Under the pieces are notes generated by a model that did no database searches, was not told the DNA's origin, and saw nothing but the letters and a program-made list of their open reading frames with translations. From NCBI GenBank assembly GCA_044352465.1, contig JBILDU010000093.1:1-11400 (forward strand): a DNA stretch of 11,400 nt. The letters run 5' to 3'. Both the position numbers and the translations under genes were made by a program. Shown here piece after piece: positions 157 to 11,400 of this stretch (positions are counted from its first letter, which is position 1; each line of letters starts with the position of its first letter). Origin of the DNA: Bdellovibrionota bacterium (lineage in GTDB: Bacteria; Bdellovibrionota_C; UBA2361).

Positions 157-726
157 TTACTTGCCCGCCCGCCACAGATATTCAGGGGTGTTGCTCCGCT
201 TGGATTCGTAGCGCGCCATCGCGAACAGGAGGTCGCTCAATCGGTTAACGTACACGAGAAGGGTTTGCGAGACCGTCTCTCGGCGGCTCAAGCGCAAGAT
301 CGCTCTCTCGGTCCGACGACAGACGGTGCGAGCGATATGGAGCGCTGCATTCAACTCAGTCCCCCCTGGTAGAACGAATGAGCGGAGCTCTGGAACGTCA
401 GCGATGAGTTCATCGATCCATCCCTCGAGTTGTTTGACCTGAGGCTCAGAGACGACGATCATCCCGGGCCATCCCGCACCCGGAGGGGTGGCGAGCTCAG
501 AGCCAAGATCAAAGAGCGCTTGTTGGATCTCAGCGAGTTTGACGACAAGCTCCGAGGCTCCCCCTTTTCCCGCCAGCGTGCGGGCCCAGCCGATAAGCGC
601 GTTCAGCTCGTCCACTTCGCCGTAGGCCTCAACTCGAGGGGAGTCTTTCTGGACCCGCGCCCCACCAACGAGGCCGGTCTCTCCGGTATCACCGGTTCGG
701 GTGTATATTTTATTTATTTTGACCAT
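157..726 (-). CDS. pduO: ATP:cob(I)alamin / cob(I)yrinic acid a,c-diamide adenosyltransferase, PduO type
   Basis: Family signatures KIYTRTGDxGET, RVEAYGEVDELNA, QxxLFDLGSELATP, FVLPGG, LHIARTVCRRTER and YVNRLSDLLFAMAR. Start moved to ATG at 726 (MVKINKIYTRTGD), because the ORF-track extension to 831 lies upstream of the conserved N-terminus. Confidence 0.95.
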   Translation of the reverse strand: MVKINKIYTRTGDTGETGLVGGARVQKDSPRVEAYGEVDELNALIGWARTLAGKGGASELVVKLAEIQQALFDLGSELATPPGAGWPGMIVVSEPQVKQLEGWIDELIADVPELRSFVLPGGTELNAALHIARTVCRRTERAILRLSRRETVSQTLLVYVNRLSDLLFAMARYESKRSNTPEYLWRAGK

Positions 727-890
727 CGTGCCGGTCACCATACACCGCGCCGAGGAGAGTGCCAACATTTCGGGTGATGGAAGAACGTTTGTGTGTTTAA
801 AATAGGGGTCAGCCGTCTCGCTCCCGTGCAATCACGTGATTATCGTTGTTGTGGGAGGGCCAAGGCACGGTTGTTTTTATTGCGAAGCTT

Positions 891-1352
891 ATGAGTTGGT
901 CCGGTTGGATTATCCTTGGGTTGGCGTTGCTCGTGGGGGAGGTGACCCTTTCGGCGTCATTCTTCCTCCTGTTTTTTGGATTAGGCGCTGTGTGTGTGGG
1001 AGGTCTGGTAGCCCTCGGAATGCCGCTGCCGCTCTGGGGCCAGTGGGTTGCTTTCCCCGCCCTTTCGCTCGCGCTGCTCGCCCTTTTTCGGAGCAAACTC
1101 CGCTCGAAGATAGGCACGAGTGTGCGGGGTGCTGATTCCGATTCAATGGTTGGTCTGCGTGGAGTCGCTGTAGGAGCGGTGGCGCCGGGCGAGCGTGGGC
1201 GGGGTGAGTTTCGGGGAACAAGTTGGGAGATCCAAAACGTTGGTGTTAGCGGGATCGGTGCCGGGGAGGCGTGTGAGGTGAAGGCGGTGCGAGGGCTGCT
1301 ATTCGACGTAGCCCCATGCGAGGAGCCGGAGGGGGATGCGCCCCATTCTTGA
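891..1352 (+). CDS. Short NfeD-family (NfeD1b/YbbJ-like) membrane protein, partner of SPFH protein
   Basis: Hydrophobic N-terminus (WIILGLALLVGE..FFLLFFGLGA..QWVAF) followed by an OB-fold-like C-terminus (MVGLRGVAV..GRGEFRGTSW..GEACEVKAVRGLLFDV). Lies directly upstream of an SPFH gene, the classic arrangement. ATG at 891 preferred over 846. Confidence 0.9.
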   Translation: MSWSGWIILGLALLVGEVTLSASFFLLFFGLGAVCVGGLVALGMPLPLWGQWVAFPALSLALLALFRSKLRSKIGTSVRGADSDSMVGLRGVAVGAVAPGERGRGEFRGTSWEIQNVGVSGIGAGEACEVKAVRGLLFDVAPCEEPEGDAPHS

Positions 1353-1377
1353 AGCGACTTTGAGGTCTGGAGTCGCT
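1353..1377 (+). other. Intercistronic stem-loop immediately after the nfeD stop
   Basis: AGCGACT(1353-1359)/AGTCGCT(1371-1377) form a perfect 7-bp stem, extended by 2 G-U pairs, with a 7-nt loop. No U-tract follows, so an mRNA stability/processing hairpin is more likely than an intrinsic terminator. Confidence 0.35.
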
Positions 1378-1465
1378 AGAGGCTCGTGGGCTGCGGATTT
1401 GGATCCATGAAGACGGTTTAAGCAATTCGAACGTAAATTTCATTATTGGAATCAGGAGTAGGGAT

Positions 1466-2389
1466 ATGACGTCGGCTTTAGTAGTTTCATCGCTCATTGC
1501 GGTATTCATTATTTTCGTCGTTGCGAAGACCGCGATCGTCGTGCCCCAGCAGAGCGCCTATGTGGTAGAGCGGCTTGGCAAGTACAGTAAGACGCTTGGT
1601 GCGGGGTTCCACATACTCTTTCCCTTTATTGATGTGATTCGGTATCGCCACTCCTTAAAGGAAATGGCTCTCGATATACCCGAGCAGGTGTGTATCACCC
1701 GGGATAACGTGCAGGTTTCGGTCGACGGGGTGCTCTACCTCAAGGTCATGGACGCAGAGCGGGCGTCGTATGGGATCGACAATTACGTTTTTGCGATAAC
1801 CCAGCTCGCTCAGACGACGTTGCGGAGTGAGATCGGTAAGATCGAGCTTGATCGCACGTTTGAGGAGCGCACCCACATCAACACCCAAGTCGTCAGTGAG
1901 CTCGATAAAGCCTCCGAACCGTGGGGTGTCAAGGTCTTACGGTACGAGATTAAGAATATTACCCCACCGCACGACGTGATCGCGGCGATGGAGAAGCAGA
2001 TGCGCGCTGAGCGTGAAAAACGGGCGGTTATTTTGACATCGGAGGGGGAGCGTGACGCCGCGATCAATTCCGCTGAGGGTAAGAAGCAAGAGGTTATCAA
2101 AGCCTCCGAGGCGACGAAGCAGCAGCAGATGAACGAAGCCGAGGGTGAGGCCGCGGCGATCTTGGCGGTTGCCACGGCCACAGCCGAGGGTATTACGCGG
2201 GTAGCTCAGGCGATCTCAGCTCACGGTGGTCTTGAAGCTACCCAGCTCCGCGTCGCCGAGCAGTACATTACGCAGTTCGGTAATCTCGCCAAGTCGAATA
2301 ACACCATGATCATTCCGTCGAATCTTACGGATGTCGCCTCAATGGTTGCCGTGGCAACCTCGGTCATCCATCGAGACAATCGCTCGTAG
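1466..2389 (+). CDS. qmcA: SPFH/band 7 stomatin-like protein (QmcA/paraslipin, SLP-2 type)
   Basis: N-terminal TM; VPQQSAYVVERLGKY, ITRDNVQVSVDGVLY, QLAQTTLRSEIG, WGVKVLRYEIK, AMEKQMRAEREKRA; C-terminal Band_7_C-like LRVAEQYITQFGNLAK..TMIIP. AGGAG Shine-Dalgarno upstream of ATG. Confidence 0.95.
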   Translation: MTSALVVSSLIAVFIIFVVAKTAIVVPQQSAYVVERLGKYSKTLGAGFHILFPFIDVIRYRHSLKEMALDIPEQVCITRDNVQVSVDGVLYLKVMDAERASYGIDNYVFAITQLAQTTLRSEIGKIELDRTFEERTHINTQVVSELDKASEPWGVKVLRYEIKNITPPHDVIAAMEKQMRAEREKRAVILTSEGERDAAINSAEGKKQEVIKASEATKQQQMNEAEGEAAAILAVATATAEGITRVAQAISAHGGLEATQLRVAEQYITQFGNLAKSNNTMIIPSNLTDVASMVAVATSVIHRDNRS

Positions 2390-2433: not shown

Positions 2434-2730
2434 TTACCGCGAGGAGCCGCTCTCGCTATCGTTCAGAAGATTTTCAATGTCCGCGAGGTCGCGCTTCTCG
2501 GGGGAGAGGGGCCGTTGCGAGGGGAGTGGGCTAGCACCACCATGCAGCTCACCCGAGGGGGGAGCGCCGGAGGGCCGGGTTACAACACGCCGCCGGGCGG
2601 GCTCTCGGGGGGCCTCGAGCGTTGACTGGTCCAGTGGGGGTGAAGTCAGAAGGTGCACTCCAACGTATGGCCCTAAAAGGGCGAGACTGAATGCGACAAA
2701 TATGATGAGCGCGATGCTTCGGGAATTCAT
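2434..2730 (-). CDS. Hypothetical protein: N-terminal TM/signal anchor, Pro-rich linker, short C-terminal amphipathic helix
   Basis: MNSRSIALIIFVAFSLALLGPYVGVHLL hydrophobic segment. Its start overlaps the stop of the upstream ORF as ATGA (2730-2727), which indicates translational coupling. Confidence 0.7.
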   Translation of the reverse strand: MNSRSIALIIFVAFSLALLGPYVGVHLLTSPPLDQSTLEAPREPARRRVVTRPSGAPPSGELHGGASPLPSQRPLSPEKRDLADIENLLNDSESGSSR

Positions 2731-3038
2731 CGGGGCTTTGATGTGGAGACGTTTAGTCTCTCTTGGGCTTCGTTGAGGATGCTCTCAAGGTGGGTGTTAA
2801 TCAATGTCCGGATTTGCTCGCGCACCAACGAAGCTTCCTCGTTGACGAGCTCAGAGCTTTGGTCGGCCATGGCTTGGACCAATTCGTGGGTGTCGACTCG
2901 TCCCAAATCGACGCTGATTCCCACTTCCGGGGCGTAGCTCAGGGACAGCTTGTTGTGGCTCAGCAGCCAGACGATGGCCGAGTCGGAAAGGCGCGTGATT
3001 TTCTGGAACTCGGCTAGTGGAACGAAGGGGCGGCTCAT
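2727..3038 (-). CDS. Hypothetical 103-aa protein, putative N-terminal excisionase/MerR-like HTH plus helical C-terminus
   Basis: ATG at 3038 (MSRPFVPLAEFQKITRLSDSAIVWLLSHNKL). Natural-looking composition, amphipathic C-terminal helices, ATGA-coupled to the next gene. The HTH call is pattern-based only. Confidence 0.7.
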   Translation of the reverse strand: MSRPFVPLAEFQKITRLSDSAIVWLLSHNKLSLSYAPEVGISVDLGRVDTHELVQAMADQSSELVNEEASLVREQIRTLINTHLESILNEAQERLNVSTSKPR

Positions 3039-3127
3039 CGTATCTGTTTCAGGGATAAATACATTTTTCCGGCCTTGCCAGAGCGATTCCAGCGGTGCGG
3101 CCACACCGCTTCGTGGCACCACCCCGA

Positions 3128-4666
3128 TTATTTTTCCGGAGGACCCCCGTGCTTGATCTTCTTCAGCGGAGCGACCTCCGCAAATAGTCGCATGAGCTCA
3201 GGCTGATCGTCAATTAAATCAGCCGCGCGTTGCCAATCTCCTCCGCATGCTTCCAACGCAAGCTGCCGGGCCATTTCGTGAAACCGCTCGCTCTCAACCT
3301 CGAGGCGCCCCTCGCTCGCCAGTGCGGCGTGTTCCCCGACAGCGAGAGCCGCCTGGGCGATCACCTCCGGGCCGGTGATCACCGAACGGAGGAGGCGTGT
3401 GCGGAATACTTCGTGTACCGCGCGTTCGTCGATGATCGACCCATCGTTAATGTCGGTGACTTCACAGAGCTGCGCGACGACGTTTTCCAGTTGGCGGAGG
3501 TTCCCCGGCCACCGTTGGGCGAATAACATCCGGTATGCTCCGCTCGTCAGGCCGTGAACGGGGCGGGCGTGGGGGCGTTGCCGTGTGACCTTGGCGAGCC
3601 CAAAGGCGAGTGCTGCGGCGATATCGAGCCGACGCTCGTGCAGCGGCTTGAGCTCCAGCTGAACCCTTTCAAGCCGATACGCAAAGTCGTCACGTAAAAT
3701 GTCCGAGGCCATCATGTCGTAGAGGCTACGGTTCGAGGCAAAAACAAAGCGGACATCAGCTTCCACCGTGTCAGCACTGCCGACGCGGCGATAGACTTTG
3801 TTCTCGATGAACGTGATGAGTTTCCCCTGCAACTCTTTGTCAATGCTCTGAAGCTCGTCGATAAACAAGGTGCCTTTTTCGGCTTTCTTTACGAGGCCCC
3901 ACTTTTCAACTGCGCCGGTATAGGCACCGGCAACAGCCCCGAAGAGTTCGGCTTGAACGAGCTCAGAGGAGGAGAAGTCGCGTGGGGTGATGCTCACGAA
4001 CTGGCCGGAGCGTCCTGAGAATAGATGGAGTGCCTGGGCGAGATTGGTCTTGACGGTGCCGGTGGCACCGATGATGAGGGGATTCTCGTTTGTGTAGGTG
4101 GCGTAACGAGGGAGCCACCGGCACCAGAGGTCGCGGCTCATCGGATCAGCCATCGACTGAACCCATCCCGAGGTCCCGAGCGGTGGCAGCGGTCGCTTCC
4201 CCTCCGACCGTCGGGTTGCTTCGTGGTGCGCGGTTTGAACGACGCTCCAGAGCTGCTCACGGAGGTCGGGGAGCGAGGGCATACCTGCAGGCGGCGCGAC
4301 GACAAAAGTATCGAGGAATCCCGAGGGCGCCAAGTCATCTCCGTCGGTGAAGAGAAGATCGCCGCCAAACCAGAGCTTTTCACTCGCGTTCAGAACGCCG
4401 ACAATCGAGATATCGCTACCCAGCCGGTCGCGACTTTGCGCGAGCACACGCCTGAGGAAAGAGTGTTGCCGTTCATTGTAGTGCAGACCGATCTCGACGA
4501 GCAGAAGCTGGGGGCGATGGGTCAGCACCAGTTCCCATCCATCGCTGACGCGCCCGTGGACGACGGAGAGGGGGACTCCGGTTGCCGTGAGGATAGCTTC
4601 GAGTCTGCGGCTCGCATCGGGTGAACCGATGATCCCGACCGATAGTTGTGGTGGCGCGGTTCTCAT
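3128..4666 (-). CDS. Sigma54-interaction (bEBP) AAA+ protein with pseudo-receiver N-terminus and degenerate Fis-like HTH
   Basis: Walker A-like GATGTVKT (4069-4046), AELFG..GAYTGA (3928-3911), GTLFIDE, LQGKL, RRVG..DVRFVFASNR, YRL, LKPLHERRLDI, WPGNLRQLENVV, ALEACGGDWQRAA. GGAG RBS; ATGA overlap with upstream gene. Confidence 0.9.
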   Translation of the reverse strand: MRTAPPQLSVGIIGSPDASRRLEAILTATGVPLSVVHGRVSDGWELVLTHRPQLLLVEIGLHYNERQHSFLRRVLAQSRDRLGSDISIVGVLNASEKLWFGGDLLFTDGDDLAPSGFLDTFVVAPPAGMPSLPDLREQLWSVVQTAHHEATRRSEGKRPLPPLGTSGWVQSMADPMSRDLWCRWLPRYATYTNENPLIIGATGTVKTNLAQALHLFSGRSGQFVSITPRDFSSSELVQAELFGAVAGAYTGAVEKWGLVKKAEKGTLFIDELQSIDKELQGKLITFIENKVYRRVGSADTVEADVRFVFASNRSLYDMMASDILRDDFAYRLERVQLELKPLHERRLDIAAALAFGLAKVTRQRPHARPVHGLTSGAYRMLFAQRWPGNLRQLENVVAQLCEVTDINDGSIIDERAVHEVFRTRLLRSVITGPEVIAQAALAVGEHAALASEGRLEVESERFHEMARQLALEACGGDWQRAADLIDDQPELMRLFAEVAPLKKIKHGGPPEK

Positions 4667-5949
4667 GGTGACTCCGTCGTTCGGGAGGCGGAGAGCCCGA
4701 GCATCTGGCGAATCGCGGCGACATCACAGCCGAGGCGGGCGGCTGTGCGGCGATAGTTTCTCCCGGTCAATTCGAAAGTTGCTGCGATCGTGAGTGGATC
4801 AAGGGTAACCGTTGCGCCATTGGCGGCGTCTCCGCTATTCGAGAGTTCGTAGTGGAGCATGAATAATTCGTGCGGTGGGATGGTGTGGGTAAGGGAGTCG
4901 AAGGCGATGTTCATCGTCACGAGACGGAGTTGGCGCACGTTGCCGGGCCATTGGGCTGAAGCCATTTTGAGGGTTAGTTCGCTATCGAACGGCGCAATAC
5001 GCTTGCCGCTTAAGGTCTCCGCCTCGCGGACGAACCGTTGGACGAGCGCTCCGATGTCGCTCCGGCGTCCCTCAAGAGAGGGGAGGGAAATCATCTCCCC
5101 TTGGGTAGCGCGGGTGAATGCACCCGCAGTAAGGGCATCAGTGGTGCATGCTAGGATCGTGCCGCCATGGTGCGGATCGCGGGAGGTGCCCTCGGCGAGC
5201 GCTGCGGCGATCTCTCCGTCGTCGGCCTCGACATTATCAAGGATCACCAGGTGCCCGCGGCGCGGCCTGATCCCTCCGCGGGGATCCACCGTGATACCGG
5301 GAATCTTCGTTGGAGCGTGGGCAAACGTGGTGATGTCCACGTAGCTCCACGCGGTTGGATTTTCGCACACTCGGCAGGCACCGTACGCAAGGACGGTGCG
5401 GCCTGTTCCCGGTTGTCCATACAAAACGATCCCGGCGCTGTGTCGAGTGATCGCGTGATTGAGCTGTGCGAGGGCGTGTTGCATCGTCGGAGCGCCGGCC
5501 ACGAGCTCCTGGAGGCTCAGGGGGCGTGGGCGGACGGCTGGTTTGACGGCGTGTTGCTCGGCCAGCGCGCGTTCGATAATCGACGTGGCGGTCTGGAGCG
5601 ATTGGGGTGAATCGATCTCAAGGTAATCGAGCGCTCCACCCTTAAGGGCCTGAACGACGACGTGGATACTCGGTTCATCGGTGAGAAAAATGACCTGGGG
5701 ACGCTTCTCCGGGGGGAGCTCGTTGAGCAGGGTCAATACGTCGAGTCCCGTCGTGAAATCCCCCAAGAGGTAGTCGAGCACGACGAAGCGGGGGGCTCGA
5801 GCAGCTACAACTGCTCCAACGTTTTTGTCCACGCCCACGCGAGACGACGTTATATTGAGGTCGGCAAAGCGCAGTTCGAGTATCTCGGCGATCTTCGCCT
5901 TCGCCGGCTCGCGTTCGTTTAAAACGATACAGACATCGTGGCGCAGCAC
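4663..5949 (-). CDS. Degenerate NtrC/Fis-family response regulator (atypical REC, eroded sigma54-type AAA+, HTH)
   Basis: REC: VVLD59YLLG..GLDVL..VIFLT..GALDY. AAA remnants: IVLYGQPGTGRT, VILDNVE, ISLPSLEGRRSDI, WPGNVRQL. HTH: TGRNYRRTAARLG. GTG start at 5949 has no clear SD, so the exact start is uncertain. Confidence 0.85.
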   Translation of the reverse strand: MLRHDVCIVLNEREPAKAKIAEILELRFADLNITSSRVGVDKNVGAVVAARAPRFVVLDYLLGDFTTGLDVLTLLNELPPEKRPQVIFLTDEPSIHVVVQALKGGALDYLEIDSPQSLQTATSIIERALAEQHAVKPAVRPRPLSLQELVAGAPTMQHALAQLNHAITRHSAGIVLYGQPGTGRTVLAYGACRVCENPTAWSYVDITTFAHAPTKIPGITVDPRGGIRPRRGHLVILDNVEADDGEIAAALAEGTSRDPHHGGTILACTTDALTAGAFTRATQGEMISLPSLEGRRSDIGALVQRFVREAETLSGKRIAPFDSELTLKMASAQWPGNVRQLRLVTMNIAFDSLTHTIPPHELFMLHYELSNSGDAANGATVTLDPLTIAATFELTGRNYRRTAARLGCDVAAIRQMLGLSASRTTESP

Positions 5950-6058
5950 TAAAACTCAGAAAAAACTAAAAAATACCGCCCGATCACCGCATCCAATAAG
6001 ATGACAGCTCGGGGCCACAGGTTCCATCAAGTCGGTCCGGGGAGAGGCATGGGTTTCT
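5950..6058. promoter_or_regulatory. Divergent promoter region with A-tracts
   Basis: 109-bp gap between head-to-head genes; A4, A6 and A6 tracts at 5951-5954, 5960-5965 and 5968-5973 in an otherwise GC-rich window. No confident -35/-10 or -24/-12 assignment. Confidence 0.5.
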
Positions 6059-6658
6059 ATGAAGGATATCCTGATAGTCGAAGATGGTACGCCCGAGAGA
6101 GAGAGGCTGATGAAGCTTTTTTCTGCAGAGGGATATTCCGTCCACGGCTGTGAAAGTGTGAAGGAGGCGGAAGAGGCACTTCGCAACGAGCCGTATCGTC
6201 TGGCGATACTCGACATCGGTTTGAACGATAAGTCTGGTTCGGTCCTCTTTGGGGTGATTAAACGCACCGGGCGGGTTCCATTTGTGGTGATTTTCACCGG
6301 AAATCCGTCCGTCCATCTCAAGCAGCGATTTATGGAGGAGGGAGCTGTCGACTATGTCGTCAAAGGGTCGCCCCAAGCGCAAAGTGAGAATTTCTTGAAT
6401 CGGGTGCGGGAGATCCTAGGGGCAGTGCAAGCTGCGCCGGTCGAAGGAGCTCCGCTGGAAGAGTTTCTACTCCGTCATGTTACTCCGGCTTCGCGGAAAT
6501 TGTTTCTCGATAGCGATAATTCCCTCCCCGAGTGTGCGGTGTGTCGCGCCAAGAATTATGTCGTCACTTTTTTGCGGCGCCCGCAGGTGCCTCCGGAGCT
6601 GGTCGGGGAGGTCGTTTGCGCCGGGTGCGGTACGCCCATGGATCCGAAGATAAGTTAA
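6059..6658 (+). CDS. Response regulator: canonical receiver plus C-terminal CxxC-x24-CxxC putative zinc-ribbon
   Basis: ILIVED (E8,D9), AILD52IGL, VIFT80, DYVVK102 are all intact. CAVC (6533-6544) and CAGC (6617-6628) near the C-terminus. GGAGAGG upstream. Confidence 0.9.
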   Translation: MKDILIVEDGTPERERLMKLFSAEGYSVHGCESVKEAEEALRNEPYRLAILDIGLNDKSGSVLFGVIKRTGRVPFVVIFTGNPSVHLKQRFMEEGAVDYVVKGSPQAQSENFLNRVREILGAVQAAPVEGAPLEEFLLRHVTPASRKLFLDSDNSLPECAVCRAKNYVVTFLRRPQVPPELVGEVVCAGCGTPMDPKIS

Positions 6659-6809
6659 CTGCGCCGGCTATGTGCTTCGTGAGCAAGGTGGTAACGCGGG
6701 GGGAGATCAACGGCGTTCGCCGAACCCCTCAGGTGTATCACCATCAGTGTGTGGGGAATCACGGCTTTCTTCCAGCGGTGATACTCCTGTCTCGGCTGCC
6801 GGAGCGCGT

Positions 6810-9596
6810 ATGATTTTTGAGCAACGTTGCGCGGCCGTTCGAGTCTGTCTGAGGCAACGCCGGGAGGCCGCCGGGCGTCTATTCGATAGTACGCTCGGAC
6901 GATCACGCGAGTTTCTCCGTAGCGTGCTCATCCCCCAAGCTTTCGGGTTCGTGCTTCTCCTTGTGGCTGGGGCTATTCTCTTGCAAGGAATCGACTCCCT
7001 CACGACGCGACTCGCCGCGCTCGCATTTCTTCTCATCATCGGTCTGCTTGTCTCCTCCTCACGCGAGTATGTGTCGCATCGATTTGTGGTTGGGTACGTG
7101 CTCGCTCTTTCGAGCGTTCTCACCGTCGCGGCCCTCCTCCTGAGGCTCGAGCTCACGACTCATGTGTTTCTACCCCTGGCCGGACTGCTCCTTCCCTTTC
7201 TGGGCTTGCGGTTGCCTCGCGTTGTGGGGGGCACGTTGGTTGGGGGAGGACTCACCCTCGGCGTGCTCTCTCTTCTTTGCGCCGTGGACGGGTGGGGGAG
7301 CCGGAGCGGCTCGCTCGGGGGGCTTAGTGTCCTCCTCCTCGTTGGCGGGCTTGTCTTAGTCCGGTGCGAGCGAGACCGTGCCAGTTCCTCCCGCCCGGTG
7401 CAAGTCGGCGCTGGGGAGGCACGTCAAAACCGATCCGGTGAGACCGCCGACGAGGCACCCGAAGCGGGGGAGGATCTACTACAGCGTGACCTCCAGGTTC
7501 TGTGGAATCGCACCGCCCGGGGGGAGTTTCTCGGCGAGGCGTTGTGGCGACTCACCGTCCTTAGTCTGGTGAGTGGTGCGTCTGTTGTTGGCCTCATTTT
7601 TCAGCTTGAGCCTGTCCAACGGCTTTTGGCAGCGAGCTGGATCGCTCTCGCGGTTATTTATGGGGGCGTGTTGATTCAGTTTGTCCGGGCGCGTGATTTC
7701 GAACGGGTTGTCACCGCTGCATTTCTCAACGCTCTTGTCGTCGTGGTTTGGTGGGTTGTTCTCGCCGCTGAGTCGCGCATCGAGGGCCCGCTCCCCGAAT
7801 TTCTCTTTGTCTTCGTCGCGCTGTCGCTCGGCTCGCTCCCGTGGCCGCGGCGTTTCGGGGTAGCTCTTGGTGGTCTGCTTCTGGGGGTGAGTAGCGTGCG
7901 GTTTCTCAGTGGCGCGGAGCCACTGCTCTGGGGGGGCGCGTTGATGGCTCTCATCCCGATCTATGTGCGACTTCTCTCCATGAGTGCAATCAACGCCCAG
8001 ACTCGGGTTGCGCTCCACTTTCTGCGCCGTTTCGGCGAGAGCGCCCCAACGTCGCTATCAGCTTGCCGAGCGCTGGCATGGCAGCTTGGCTGCGTCGTCG
8101 AAGCGGAGCGGGTACTGCTCCTTATCGGCGAGCGGCGGCATGAAGTCATCGAGCGCGGTAGCGCGAGGGGTTCAAAGGTCGATTCCGTCTTTGCCCGGGG
8201 ATTACATCACACCATCGTCTCGTTTAATCGCGATGACGGATCTCTCTTTTTCAGAGATCTCAGTCCCCAGTACCTCGCACCGTGTCTCGATTGGTTCGGA
8301 TTGGTGCCGACCGAGTTTTTTTTCCAGCGCTGTAGCGCTGTCATCGAAGGACGAGAGGAGACGCTTGTGGTGGTAATGCCATGCACGTTCACGGCTCGAG
8401 TGTGTGGTCGGGGACGGGTAATGCGGGCCCTTGGTGGATTGGCCGCGATTGTGCGCAGTTGGCTGGGAGCCGCGCGGGGGCGCTTGGTCTCCTCTGATGT
8501 GATTATGGCGACCCAGCAGTCGATCTCAGCACGGGAGGAGGACCTTAATCACCTTGTCCACCTCGTCAATAATACAGCCCAGGATATCGCCGCCGAATGC
8601 GATGATGTGCGCCAGCTCGCCGCGGCGGGAGAGGTGGAAGTTGAGCCAGCGATCGCGGCACGGCTCGATGGGATCGAGCGGCTTGCGCGGAGCCTCTCAG
8701 CGGGTGCTTCCGACGTGAAGTTACTGAAGGAGCTGCTCCGTGTCCGGGTGCTCACGTCGCGGGACACGGTGGATGTGGCGTCGCTCCTCGAGGATGTCGC
8801 GATGTTTGGCCGGTTTCGTGCTGGGCGAGCTGGTAAATCCTTCCGGGTGGAAGTGGGGGAGGCCACGGATTTACGCTTGACCGTCGCCAGTCGTGAGTTT
8901 CTGAGTATGGTGTTACGAATGCTGGTGCGGTTGGCGGAGGGGCGTTCACCGCGCGGCGGTGAGATCGTCTTAGAAGCTGGTGCGGAAGGGGAGATGATCC
9001 GTTTGGTGGTTCGCGATACGGGTGGGCCGATCGATGGGCCGCGGATTGAGTATCAGTTAGCCCATCTCGAGGAAGAGGAGAGTGGGGATCGGGCTCTTGA
9101 GGTGTATCGAGCCGCTACCAATCTGACTCGACTGAGCCGCGGCGGGGTGTCGTTTGGCGCGGGAGAGGATCTCTCTGCAGTCGCCTTGCACTTTCCCCGC
9201 GCTGCAGCCGTACCCATGCACGCCCGGGTGTACGGGTGGATATTACTTGTCGATGATAATGTGCAGGTTACCGGTTTTTACGCTCGGGTGGCCGAAGCCT
9301 TAGAGCATCGGTATCACACCGCGGCGTCGCTTGGGGAAGCTCAAGCGATCATCGCCCGTGAGGGGCGCCCCCGATTGGTTGTCAGCGATCTCCAGTTGGG
9401 GGACGGGAGTGGGCTCGATTTGGTGCGCGACTTGCGCCAGCGTTTCGGTGGAGATCTGCCCATCGTTGTGGTGAGCGGTAATACGGGTGCGGAGTTGGTC
9501 GACGAGGTGCGGGCAGCCGGTGTAACGTCATACCTCGCAAAACCGGTTGGACGGAGTAAGTTGTTAGCAGAGATGCGCTCTTTGTTACGTGGGTGA
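6810..9596 (+). CDS. Polytopic membrane hybrid histidine-kinase-like protein (about 12 TM, GAF-like, HisKA-like, degenerate HATPase, REC); probable pseudokinase
   Basis: Two clusters of ~6 hydrophobic helices; H-box-like HLVHLVNNTAQDI; HATPase-like GGEIVLEA..IRLVVRDTG; intact C-terminal REC (ILLVDDN, VVSDLQLGDGSG, VVVSG, YLAKPV). ATG 6810 chosen because GGAG lies 5 nt upstream; the ORF is open from GTG 6672. Confidence 0.85.
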   Translation: MIFEQRCAAVRVCLRQRREAAGRLFDSTLGRSREFLRSVLIPQAFGFVLLLVAGAILLQGIDSLTTRLAALAFLLIIGLLVSSSREYVSHRFVVGYVLALSSVLTVAALLLRLELTTHVFLPLAGLLLPFLGLRLPRVVGGTLVGGGLTLGVLSLLCAVDGWGSRSGSLGGLSVLLLVGGLVLVRCERDRASSSRPVQVGAGEARQNRSGETADEAPEAGEDLLQRDLQVLWNRTARGEFLGEALWRLTVLSLVSGASVVGLIFQLEPVQRLLAASWIALAVIYGGVLIQFVRARDFERVVTAAFLNALVVVVWWVVLAAESRIEGPLPEFLFVFVALSLGSLPWPRRFGVALGGLLLGVSSVRFLSGAEPLLWGGALMALIPIYVRLLSMSAINAQTRVALHFLRRFGESAPTSLSACRALAWQLGCVVEAERVLLLIGERRHEVIERGSARGSKVDSVFARGLHHTIVSFNRDDGSLFFRDLSPQYLAPCLDWFGLVPTEFFFQRCSAVIEGREETLVVVMPCTFTARVCGRGRVMRALGGLAAIVRSWLGAARGRLVSSDVIMATQQSISAREEDLNHLVHLVNNTAQDIAAECDDVRQLAAAGEVEVEPAIAARLDGIERLARSLSAGASDVKLLKELLRVRVLTSRDTVDVASLLEDVAMFGRFRAGRAGKSFRVEVGEATDLRLTVASREFLSMVLRMLVRLAEGRSPRGGEIVLEAGAEGEMIRLVVRDTGGPIDGPRIEYQLAHLEEEESGDRALEVYRAATNLTRLSRGGVSFGAGEDLSAVALHFPRAAAVPMHARVYGWILLVDDNVQVTGFYARVAEALEHRYHTAASLGEAQAIIAREGRPRLVVSDLQLGDGSGLDLVRDLRQRFGGDLPIVVVSGNTGAELVDEVRAAGVTSYLAKPVGRSKLLAEMRSLLRG

Positions 9597-9637
9597 GTGA
9601 GCTGTAACTTGTAGCGTCGTGGGAGGAAGGTGCGGTT

Positions 9638-10111
9638 ATGAGTGATCAAAGAGATGATTCTCCACGTCAGGGCCGTGTGGCCCCCGAGGTCATCCGGAGC
9701 TTAGTCGAGCGCAGCACAGACTGTTATCTCAAGCTTGTGCAGGAAGTCCTCATTGAGGAGCACGACATCCTCGTTGCTGAGGTCGCGCGGCGATTCCGCG
9801 GCGGCGGCTGGGCTGATTCGGGGGCTAGCGCTGCTCTCGTCGCACCTCATCAAGGTTGGGTTGAGATTGAGTCGTTGTCGCGATTACGGAGTATCGTGGG
9901 GGGACGGTTCCAAAATCTGCGTGACCGCTGGGTGGGCGCGGGGTTCCCTTTACGGGAACACCGCGGAGACAAAGATGGTGCATTTGTGCTGAACGAGGCT
10001 GGTTGGATCGAGCTTTCCAATTGGATCGCTAAGCAGGGATTCGAGTCCCGTCTTACCCCCGATAAATCGGGTTGCCTTTTTGAGCTGAGGGCGTTGAGTC
10101 GAGCCGGATAG
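9638..10111 (+). CDS. Hypothetical 157-aa soluble protein
   Basis: GGAGGAAGG SD-like sequence upstream of ATG; 41 bp after and co-directional with the hybrid kinase gene; globular-looking composition with several Trp residues. No family recognised with confidence. Confidence 0.75.
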   Translation: MSDQRDDSPRQGRVAPEVIRSLVERSTDCYLKLVQEVLIEEHDILVAEVARRFRGGGWADSGASAALVAPHQGWVEIESLSRLRSIVGGRFQNLRDRWVGAGFPLREHRGDKDGAFVLNEAGWIELSNWIAKQGFESRLTPDKSGCLFELRALSRAG

Positions 10112-10591
10112 CATCTGACATTCGGAGTCGTGCGAATTCTGAGCTTCCGTTTCTATCGATATGGCCCGGAAAGCGCCTCTCTCAGAGATTTTCTTAGAGG
10201 CTGTCCAATCTGGTCGAAAGACCTCCCGGCGAAGATTACTGGGAAGGACGCTCCGTCAACAGCCGTTTGATCGGGGTGAGCTAACTACGGGTTGTCGCGT
10301 TGAGGTTGATTTATTCAACGACGGTATCGCTTGCACCCAGCCGTTTCCGCGCCATTCGAGGAGTAATTTCTCATAGATGCGTCACGATGTGCCGACACTA
10401 CCCTCGTATCAGAGTATTTCGGATTGCTCGCTACAAGGGGGAGCCGCCTGCTGTTGATGCCAAGCCCCCGATTCGATTGGAGTAATCCGATCGGTTGAGC
10501 TCACGAAGGGGAGCGAACTGGGATTTGGCGTAGCCGCGGGTATCGTCGCGGATAGCCCGCGCAACAGACGGTACGGGGTGGGAGAACAGGC

Positions 10592-11400
10592 ATGTTGCTG
10601 GACGGTGGAGAAAAGGAACGGCGCGACGAATCGGCAGGTGAAAACCGGTCTGTCCCGGCGGCTATCACCGATACCGGCTGCGAGCGTGAGCTCAACGAGG
10701 ACCGGTACGCGGTTGTCGAGTCTCAATCCGGTCTCGCTTGGCTTGTCTGCGACGGCATGGGTGGTACGGCCGGCGGTGAGCTCGCCGCCCAACTTGCGAT
10801 CGAGGCGATTCGCCGCGACCTTGAAAATCTACCGGAGCGTCCCGCGGATGGGGCGTTAAAGTCCGCTATCCTCGAGGCCAATCGGGTCATCGTTTTGCGG
10901 CGGCAGAATCAAGCGTTCGCCGAGATGGGGACCACGATCGTTGCGCTTATGTTCAGCGGCGCTGAAGTGGTGGTGAGTCACGTGGGCGATTCGCGCGCGT
11001 ACCTCGTACGGGATGGCGCGATTCAGCAATTGACTACCGATCACACCCTCGTTCAGACCCTCGTGGATCGAGGGGAGATCCGCGCGGATGAGGCGCTCTC
11101 CCATCCGCAAGCGCATATTCTTACCCGGGCGATCGGCTCAGAGCCAGGGCTGCAAGTCGAGGTTCAACGCTACTGGGTGTGGCAGGTAGGGGAAGGTGAG
11201 CCGGTCGATCATCTGATCTTGTGTACGGACGGTCTGTATAGCCTCGTGACTGAGGGAGAGATCGCGAATCTCGTCTCGCAAGAGGGGCCGCAGCGAGCGT
11301 GTGTCAAGTTGGTTGAAATGGCGCGGTCCCGTGGTGGCTTCGATAATATCACGGTAGCGGTGATTCCACTCGCCGGACAGCTCCGCCAAGAGGCGCCGGA
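10592..11400 (+). CDS. PP2C/PPM-family Ser/Thr protein phosphatase (Stp1/PrpC-like), truncated by window end
   Basis: My translation from ATG 10592 (GGAG at 10581-10584): MLLDGGEK..TDTGCERELNED..LVCDGMGG..GGELAA..MGTT..HVGDSRAY..QLTTDHT..HPQAHILTRAIG..LILCTDGL..GGFDNITV. No stop before 11400, so it is absent from the ORF track. Confidence 0.95.
   Translation, partial: MLLDGGEKERRDESAGENRSVPAAITDTGCERELNEDRYAVVESQSGLAWLVCDGMGGTAGGELAAQLAIEAIRRDLENLPERPADGALKSAILEANRVIVLRRQNQAFAEMGTTIVALMFSGAEVVVSHVGDSRAYLVRDGAIQQLTTDHTLVQTLVDRGEIRADEALSHPQAHILTRAIGSEPGLQVEVQRYWVWQVGEGEPVDHLILCTDGLYSLVTEGEIANLVSQEGPQRACVKLVEMARSRGGFDNITVAVIPLAGQLRQEAP

Follow-up and report, generated by a model that had tools for sequence, protein, structure and literature searches.

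The stretch of DNA analysed here (the window) is the whole 11,400-base contig JBILDU010000093.1 from assembly GCA_044352465.1 of a Bdellovibrionota bacterium (GTDB lineage UBA2361). Listing and translating its open reading frames (ORFs) revealed, between two sets of neighbouring genes, seven frames without interruption, g1 to g7, arranged in two divergent runs (Table 1). A previous interpretation made by a model from the letters of the window (the sequence-only reading) had described seven long uninterrupted frames around a 109-bp gap with two ATGA couplings, and all of these are present: the g4 stop and the g3 start overlap by ATGA at 4666-4663, and g2 and g1 do the same at 2730-2727. Six of the genes, g2 to g7, constitute a conserved, dedicated and lineage-restricted two-component/sigma-54 regulatory cassette of uncultured freshwater bacteria, and g1 is a genus-specific accessory.

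The conservation of the cassette was followed across the order, class and phylum. Of the 41 same-order genomes, the window's own counted, 19 hold full-length g3 orthologues (46-100% identity), and the others gave only generic AAA+ matches. The gene order g2-g3-g4 <> g5-g6-g7, where <> denotes the divergent junction, was identical in 18/18 fetched loci; by tblastn 10 of these hold all six genes, 3 hold five (with g2 undetected) and 5 are cut by contig ends. Another 6/6 loci, of which five belong to other orders of the class and one (L049) to the window's own order, showed the arrangement g4-g3 <> g5-g6-g7 again, and a g2-like ORF lies -3 to +8 from the g3 stop in 5/6 of them, namely all five from other orders. 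With g7 as marker the cassette was present in 43 of the 124 genomes of the phylum. A scan of genome contigs returned 2 true relatives only. The source records of the relatives are uncultured “Deltaproteobacteria”, “Oligoflexia” and “Bdellovibrionales” metagenome-assembled genomes, and their protein names are generic.

Table 1 Features of the 11,400-base window and their positions.
Feature	Position	Strand	Description
PduO-type cobalamin adenosyltransferase	157-831		Cluster flank (Pfam)
NfeD/SPFH (band 7) pair	846-2389		Cluster flank (Pfam)
g1	2434..2730	minus	98 aa; one N-terminal membrane helix, Pro/Ser-rich tail
g2	2727..3038 (alternative GTG start 3122)	minus	About 103 aa; helix-turn-helix-like N-terminus, helical C-terminus
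g3	3128..4666	minus	512 aa; sigma-54 activator
g4	4663..5949	minus	428 aa; g3 paralogue with atypical receiver, pseudo-AAA+ domain and C-terminal helix-turn-helix
Divergent control region	5950..6058	none	109 bp
g5	6059..6658	plus	199 aa; canonical receiver and CxxC...CxxC zinc-ribbon-like domain
g6	6672..9596	plus	974 aa (about 927 aa from internal ATG); membrane protein with kinase-like core and receiver
g7	9638..10111	plus	157 aa; orphan with N-terminal helical hairpin and conserved C-terminal alpha/beta domain
PP2C phosphatase	10592-11398		Cut by contig end; cluster flank (Pfam)

Comparison with a same-genus genome gave ratios of non-synonymous to synonymous substitution rates (dN/dS) of 0.14 for g2, 0.075 for g3, 0.18 for g4, 0.05 for g5 and 0.26 for the N-terminal part of g6, which are rough values as dS is saturated at 1.7-3.0. 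The sequence-only reading had argued for a dedicated module as opposed to decay and had pointed to synteny and dN/dS as ways of checking this; both checks bore it out, with a fixed gene order in the 18/18 fetched and 6/6 further loci and purifying selection that speaks against simple decay. The cluster could still be imagined as a functionless, decaying relic in this lineage, since catalytic motifs are lost in two of the proteins, the cluster is missing from many genomes of the order and the window itself carries a P-loop variant. This we find hardly credible, and it is already contradicted by the data: all frames are open in the examined loci with dN/dS at 0.05-0.26, many non-catalytic residues are invariant, the degenerate state is common to at least 12 families of the order, removal is clean where the cluster has been lost, and the P-loop variant is private to one assembly.

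The variant in question lies in g3. This protein matches the Pfam family Sigma54_activat (4.9e-37) as well as AAA_lid_14, and its AAA+ core matches many NCBIfam activator models at 1e-36 to 1e-46, with scores far under every equivalog cut-off (e.g. 156 vs 795 bits). In the family, Walker B (LF[IF]DE) and the sigma-54 contact loop (GAYTGA) are found in 26/26 sequences, sensor II (WPGNLRQLEN) in 25/26, and the RxDFAYRL stretch in the arginine finger region is invariant. Walker A (GxxxxGK[ST]) is present in 25/26, the window being the sole exception with GATGTVKT, where the codon at 4052-4054 (minus-strand GTC) gives a Gly206Val substitution in the P-loop. A 98%-identical protein has Gly at this position, and contigs of 4/4 other lake-water runs show one difference from the window in 2,822 bases, at position 4053 (plus-strand base), which restores the Gly. 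From these alignments Gly206Val is judged to be a private one-base variant of this assembly, which is either an error of the consensus or genuine and then disabling in one population. The non-canonical Walker A that had been read in g3 is thus a singleton not shared by 25/26 orthologues or the 4/4 other runs, and across its family g3 has the motifs of an intact sigma-54 activator.

Outside the AAA+ core g3 is less conventional. Its N-terminal domain (residues 1-165) is conserved, gave no Pfam match to a receiver and no match to the g5 receiver profile in hhalign, and a profile search against PDB sequences found nothing. Four receiver-type domains had been proposed for the cluster, two canonical and two atypical; three are demonstrable, the canonical ones of g5 and g6 and the atypical one of g4, and the g3 N-terminus could not be demonstrated as a fourth. 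At the C-terminus only the 'AL E..GD...A' part of a Fis-type helix-turn-helix (HTH) is conserved, the recognition-helix positions vary and Pfam HTH_8 is not matched, so that the HTH of g3 looks, as judged by conservation, like a decayed remnant.

The protein g4 shows the opposite pattern. It is paralogous to g3 from Walker A through the HTH with the sigma-54 loop deleted (hhalign probability 98.7%, E 1.7e-16), and in Pfam it matches AAA_lid_14 (2.9e-11) and leaves PF00158 unmatched. Walker K[ST] is found in only 2/25 orthologues, with an Arg at that position in the sister orders, and a GAFTGA-like motif in 0/25, and g4 did not qualify as an enhancer-binding protein when examined for a Walker A Lys, a Walker B DE and a GAFTGA loop. 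The N-terminal domain scores 25 bits against Response_reg, below the 30.2 cut-off, and keeps LNERE in 22/25, LDY in 24/25 and TDEPS in 23/25 sequences, while the C-terminal HTH motif 'YR.AA.RLG' is conserved. On these motif counts g4 is a pseudo-ATPase family-wide, a state that appears ancestral to the class. For g4, then, the sequence-only reading stands with its atypical receiver and its AAA+ domain resembling those of bacterial enhancer-binding proteins and having a non-canonical Walker A.

As read from the sequences, the losses in g3 and g4 are complementary, and the two genes always co-occur. Together with the ATGA overlap this makes a mixed g4/g3 activator the simplest reading. Complex prediction for the pair, which had been suggested as a check, gave a weak pass: the interaction score ipSAE was 0.56 (0.57, 0.54 and 0.56 in the individual runs) against 0.00 for the best of 3 controls, with the runs agreeing on at least 68% of contacts and partners at a predicted local distance difference test score (pLDDT) of at least 78. 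Among solved complexes 116 of 157 attain the mark applied, among mismatched pairs 2 of 215. Passing scores of 0.60 or less include only 18 of the 157 solved complexes and both passing mismatches, and the prediction lends the g3-g4 complex weak support. We consider a mixed activator plausible. The two-subunit complex that had been envisaged is retained to this extent (ATGA overlap, co-occurrence and the weak prediction), with the correction that g3 itself is intact and no pseudo-enzyme.

Alternatively g4 and g3 may act apart, g4 as a sigma-70-type regulator or repressor resembling VpsR, FleQ or TyrR, whose dead AAA+ domain would bind a ligand, and g3 as a homo-hexamer brought to the DNA by g2. 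Atypical AAA+ regulators that act without sigma-54 exist, g4 has lost every sigma-54-specific motif and kept its HTH, and g2 is HTH-like and coupled to g3. We nevertheless hold separate action to be unlikely, as it sits poorly with the g4/g3 overlap and the constant co-occurrence, with the decayed HTH of g3, which g4 would complement, and with the complex prediction, weak as its pass is (0.56 vs 0.00).

The closest known parallel to the pair is HrpR/HrpS of Pseudomonas syringae, described as tandem paralogous sigma-54 activators that form a hetero-hexamer; HrpS, which acts together with sigma-54, naturally carries GAYTGA (PMC3105312). Both systems have tandem co-transcribed paralogous AAA+ activators with partial degeneration and divided labour, and the active partner, here g3, carries GAYTGA. 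The differences are considerable. HrpR and HrpS both bind nucleotide, contact sigma-54 and have HTHs, and neither has a receiver; here g4 lacks the Walker Lys and the GAFTGA loop and has a receiver-like domain, and g3 lacks a conserved HTH and has an N-terminal domain of no matched family, the hetero-oligomer being predicted only, and weakly. Because g4 has no sigma-54 loop, contact of both subunits with sigma-54, as in HrpRS, cannot be expected here from its sequence. Compared with the NtrC family (NtrC, NtrX, LuxO and others), g4 has the same receiver-AAA+-HTH order, but in the cassette two or three polypeptides share what a single NtrC protein does.

On the other side of the divergent control region the largest protein, g6, has about 11 hydrophobic helices in two blocks (by hydropathy) followed by a cytoplasmic domain. 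Its annotated GTG start adds about 47 residues (window 6672-6812) that are absent from the orthologues (910-938 aa), and translation more likely begins at the internal ATG of residue 48. The AlphaFold2 model of residues 585-974 (pLDDT 85.7) consists of a helical hairpin (model helices 2-67 and 73-106), an alpha/beta sandwich and a receiver, and Foldseek matched it to ShkA (1.9e-12) and DivL (4q20, 1.3e-10), then HK853, WalK and RetS. In the window His630 is encoded at 8559-8561, the degenerate CA-like domain at nt 8763-9200 and the canonical receiver at nt 9240-9590. Across 13/13 aligned C-termini of the same order His630 and the following NN..Q of the H.VNN..Q motif (alignment N49, N50 and Q53) are invariant. 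These same-order orthologues have no conserved N, G1 or G2 box and carry an invariant Arg in the N-box helix; HATPase_c was above cut-off in 0/13 (2/13 sub-threshold) and HisKA in 0/13, and the same-order orthologue at L049 is likewise without HATPase_c. The C-terminal receiver matches Pfam Response_reg (2.6e-14) with its DD, D, S and K invariant. Two statements of the sequence-only reading are hereby confirmed: g6 has a histidine-kinase-like core without the ATP-binding boxes (N, G1 and G2), now with the kinase fold recognised by Foldseek, and the window holds no intact kinase, as none of its 12 scanned ORFs has HATPase_c above the Pfam cut-off.

The picture is different in the sister orders, where 5/5 g6 orthologues have HATPase_c above cut-off (E 2.8e-11 to 3.8e-21) and, with one partial case, canonical NNA, DxGxG and GGLGxGL boxes together with an HDINN H-box. 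The partial case is L047 (G058), which keeps the N and G1 boxes (HATPase_c 2.8e-11) and has lost G2; it may be an independent partial step to the same degeneration, and the motif rule used in the tree analysis scored it as degenerate despite its Pfam match. A quick tree, rooted at its midpoint only, groups the g3 sequences of the sister orders as a fully supported clade. Consensus ATP-binding boxes are not plausibly regained, and we therefore infer that the ancestor was an intact hybrid kinase and that the window's order lost ATP binding in g6 once, the rest of the protein being kept under selection. The kinase-less state is, on this comparison, derived and not ancestral, and at the root of the cassette would stand a conventional two-component/activator module.

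Canonical motifs in orthologues had been named in advance as a sign of strain-specific decay, and the outcome depends on the gene: g3 is canonical in 25/26, the g6 boxes are intact in sister orders and degenerate across the window's order, and g4 is degenerate family-wide. True pseudo-enzymes are thus included in the cluster, the pseudo-ATPase g4 and the pseudo-kinase domain of g6, whereas the description of a cluster “built largely from pseudo-enzymes” is overstated, with g3 intact in the family and the receivers of g5 and g6 canonical.

What the g6 of this order does was considered in the light of kinase-fold proteins that are not kinases. Most likely it no longer autophosphorylates, and by analogy it is probably now a phosphotransfer or phosphatase hub of the ChpT/PhyT kind, as its fold, conserved His and lack of ATP-binding features are those of a kinase-derived phosphotransferase. 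ChpT is described as having a kinase fold and not using ATP (PMC3433190), and PhyT, a degenerate kinase bound to the membrane, as handing phosphate on from a single-domain regulator to the output regulator (PMC5898713). In common with ChpT of Caulobacter, Spo0B of Bacillus and PhyT of Sphingomonas, g6 has a DHp hairpin with a conserved His and a Bergerat-fold domain without ATP-binding features; in common with PhyT it is membrane-bound, and it may work with g5 as PhyT does with a single-domain regulator of the adjacent pathway. It differs from all three in its much greater size, with about 11 membrane helices and one more cytoplasmic domain, in the fusion to a receiver of its own, and in the survival of its intact-kinase form in sister orders. 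No sequence relation of g6 to the three was detected, the single match to SPOB_ab (1/13 orthologues, E 0.07) being at chance level.

The protein DivL of Caulobacter had been offered as the analogy for g6, with which it shares the kinase fold (4q20, Foldseek E 1.3e-10) and a non-kinase signalling role that is putative for g6. In DivL the His is replaced by Tyr and the CA domain is retained; in g6 it is the ATP boxes that are missing, and the His is still there. Because of this, ChpT, Spo0B and PhyT are better analogies, and DivL is a poorer one than had been suggested. DivL does give substance to another reading, in which g6 signals without passing phosphate via its His, as a DivL-like scaffold or sensor, a pure phosphatase or a phosphate sink, binding g5 or phosphorylated g5 and relaying that state to g4/g3 by contacts between proteins, possibly through g7. 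DivL is among the best structural matches (E 1.3e-10), the receiver of g4 is atypical, the orphan g7 is strictly co-conserved and the Asn at His+4 is invariant, a position tied to phosphatase activity in HisKA kinases. The His of g6 is, however, conserved in the aligned same-order orthologues, unlike in DivL, both canonical receivers keep all phospho-chemistry residues, and phosphatase and transferase roles are not exclusive, as PhyT illustrates, so that we regard signalling without phosphotransfer as rather unlikely.

We think it very unlikely that the g6 of this order is still a kinase that binds ATP via migrated or non-canonical residues, in which case the cassette would be a two-component system of the ordinary, self-contained sort. 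In favour of this, the model shows a well-folded CA-like domain (block mean pLDDT mostly 80-95), the domain is under selection, and pseudoenzymes with migrated residues are described (PMC10211241). Set against this, the domain has no conserved Asn, DxGxG or GxGxG in the 13 same-order orthologues and carries the invariant Arg in the N-box helix, and with the standard boxes retained in the sister orders the fold had no need of alternatives.

The remaining proteins are small. The receiver of g5 (residues 4-106) matches Response_reg at 1.3e-15 with D9, D52, T80 and K102 invariant, and together with the C-terminal receiver of g6 (2.6e-14) it accounts for the two canonical receivers of the sequence-only reading. 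Its C-terminal domain (residues 128-199, 72 residues) has four invariant Cys, arranged as CxxC...CxxC in 22/23 sequences, and gave only weak, sub-threshold zinc-ribbon matches. The g5 family comprises 254 proteins, none specifically named. For g2 the orthologues are 93-107 aa long in 16 loci, and the start is probably the ATG at 3038 (103 aa) rather than the GTG at 3122 (131 aa); the g3 stop and the g2 start overlap or abut in most loci. Atlas feature matches placed g2 with HTH and HTH_17-like clusters (score 0.92), a lead only, and comparison with PDB sequences gave nothing below E 0.14.

The last gene of the cassette, g7, has the conserved pattern SLS.LR..VGGRF...W..AGFPL..H.GD..GW and no Pfam or NCBIfam match. 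Its AlphaFold2 model (pLDDT 81.9) gave no Foldseek match in pdb at E <= 0.001 when searched whole, the C-terminal domain not having been searched alone. A profile search against PDB sequences reached E 0.16 at best, the VIA wide structure search a Z of 4.8 for the N-terminal helices only, and the Atlas structure search a TM of at most 0.36 on a poor model. The g7 family has 114 representatives in 1.84 billion proteins, all of them short and stand-alone.

As far as the gene set as a whole is concerned, no described system was matched: NCBIfam gave only sub-threshold generic matches, and the records are named just “response regulator” or “sigma 54-interacting transcriptional regulator”. Literature searches, supplements excluded, on GAYTGA, on Bdellovibrio enhancer-binding proteins and sigma-54, on ChpT/Spo0B and on pseudokinases with enhancer-binding proteins did not find the set described either, which agrees with the view in the sequence-only reading that this is not a described system.

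In most loci the cassette lies between PduO and the genes for PP2C, an FHA protein and a Ser/Thr kinase. These genes were considered as obligate members of the cluster and rejected, as they adjoin directly as divergent neighbours in 4/4 cluster-less genomes examined (L040-L043; G013, G024, G030 and G002); a fifth cluster-less genome, G011, had weak PP2C matches only and its locus is outside this count. We take the direct junction as evidence that the cassette is inserted or deleted as a unit at a conserved site, its flanks being independent of it. Genes for a SpoIIE-type phosphatase and DUF2231 are often found beyond PduO. Between PduO and the cassette, g1 and the NfeD/SPFH pair form an insertion in this genus only, with 39% identity for g1 in the same-genus locus L021 (tblastn) and 93% for SPFH in a same-genus genome. 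The protein g1 has a single hydrophobic segment (residues 6-24) and no Pfam or NCBIfam match. On the other side a 480-bp spacer (10112-10591) separates g7 from PP2C, compared with 187-536 bp in relatives; it holds a 71-codon ORF (10161-10376) without a family match, and no conserved motif was identified in it.

Turning to transcription, a conserved -10-like TAAGAT lies at 5997-6002 upstream of g5, and inspection by eye of the relatives' aligned intergenic regions showed a TA(A/G)GAT-like element, by which the cassette itself looks sigma-70-driven. Sigma-70 and terminator scans stayed at chance level. A sigma-54 pattern scan of the window gave 1 match, inside g4, with 3.84 expected by chance, and the g3-g2, g2-PduO and g7-PP2C spacers of relatives had only scattered hits with 2-3 mismatches. 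The gene rpoN is present in 40/41 same-order genomes, 37 of them over the cut-off; in the window's own genome the first 64 residues are found at a contig end (G000:C152:50-238), and neither the core-binding nor the DNA-binding domain turned up in any part of the assembly. The suggested check for rpoN was thus positive for the order and for the own genome yielded only this fragment. Sigma-54-like promoters elsewhere in the own genome (contigs C22, C151, C117, C16, C28 and others; loci L050-L067) precede genes for flagellin, FlgK, MotA and FlhB as well as a pilin-like gene, a lytic transglycosylase, another activator and several unknown genes, and constitute a candidate sigma-54 regulon. With about nine activators in the genome, none of these promoters can be assigned to g3. 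In the suggested check for partner kinases, about 23 other ORFs of the own genome matched a kinase-core profile with both G1 and G2 motifs and are candidate intact kinases.

Collectively, these data lead us to propose, at about an even chance of being right, that g2-g7 is an uncharacterised two-component module driving a g4/g3 split activator, with g6 as a phosphotransfer/phosphatase hub fed by kinases encoded elsewhere. The input side would be g5-g6-g7, with g6 ancestrally a membrane-embedded hybrid histidine kinase. One of the about 23 kinases encoded elsewhere would phosphorylate the receiver of g5, and g6, as a phosphotransferase and/or phosphatase like ChpT, Spo0B and PhyT, would shuttle phosphate among the g5 receiver, its own receiver and perhaps g4. 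The output side would be g4-g3-g2, which appear translationally coupled. Here g3 would supply the ATPase and the GAYTGA loop contacting sigma-54, its own DNA-binding helix being apparently decayed, while g4, with ATP binding and the sigma-54 loop presumably lost and the receiver-like domain and HTH kept, would tether and regulate; g4 tethering and g3 remodelling would make up one mixed activator, with g2 as a possible further DNA-binding or control subunit. Observation covers the genes present, their synteny and selection, their domain identities and motif states, and the contrast of intact and degenerate orders; the direction in which phosphate flows, the joining of g3 and g4 in one assembly, what g2 and g7 do, and the signal and target promoters are matters of inference.

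Several points weigh against this proposal. On the input side, no kinase is consistently adjacent to the cluster and none in trans could be assigned to it, g6 is without an HPt domain and the route from its receiver to g4 is undefined, and the receiver of g4 lacks the conserved Lys and one acidic residue and may not be phosphorylatable. The ancestral status of the intact g6 depends on the no-regain argument, with the tree rooted at its midpoint only. On the output side, the decay of the g3 HTH is judged from lost conservation alone, the g3-g4 score lies in the weak band and may, as AAA+ rings have been solved, reflect likeness to known structures, and the search for a sigma-54 promoter or a shared operator inside the cluster or next to it came up empty in every locus.

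The cluster combines known kinds of parts, a two-component phosphorelay, a kinase-derived phosphotransferase and a paralogue-pair activator, and its mechanism beyond the domain identities is a matter of interpretation from sequence. Tentatively, and with somewhat less than an even chance, it may be viewed as a hybrid kinase caught turning into a kinase-less hub with both states alive in sister orders, joined to an undescribed split activator (the DNA-binding pseudo-ATPase g4, the DNA-blind ATPase g3 and the HTH adaptor g2) and to the receiver-zinc-ribbon protein g5 and the orphan g7, which have no described relatives. ChpT, Spo0B and PhyT are thought to derive from degenerated kinases, and to our knowledge their intact precursors are not at hand. 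Since g6 orthologues occur in both states in an identical gene context, the conversion of a kinase and the rewiring of its partners can be compared side by side. The g4/g3 pair would likewise extend the subunit specialisation of HrpRS to an extreme, one subunit being without ATPase and sigma-54 contact and the other without a conserved DNA-binding helix. The organisms are uncultured, and until the targets are known the value of the cassette is mechanistic and evolutionary rather than physiological.

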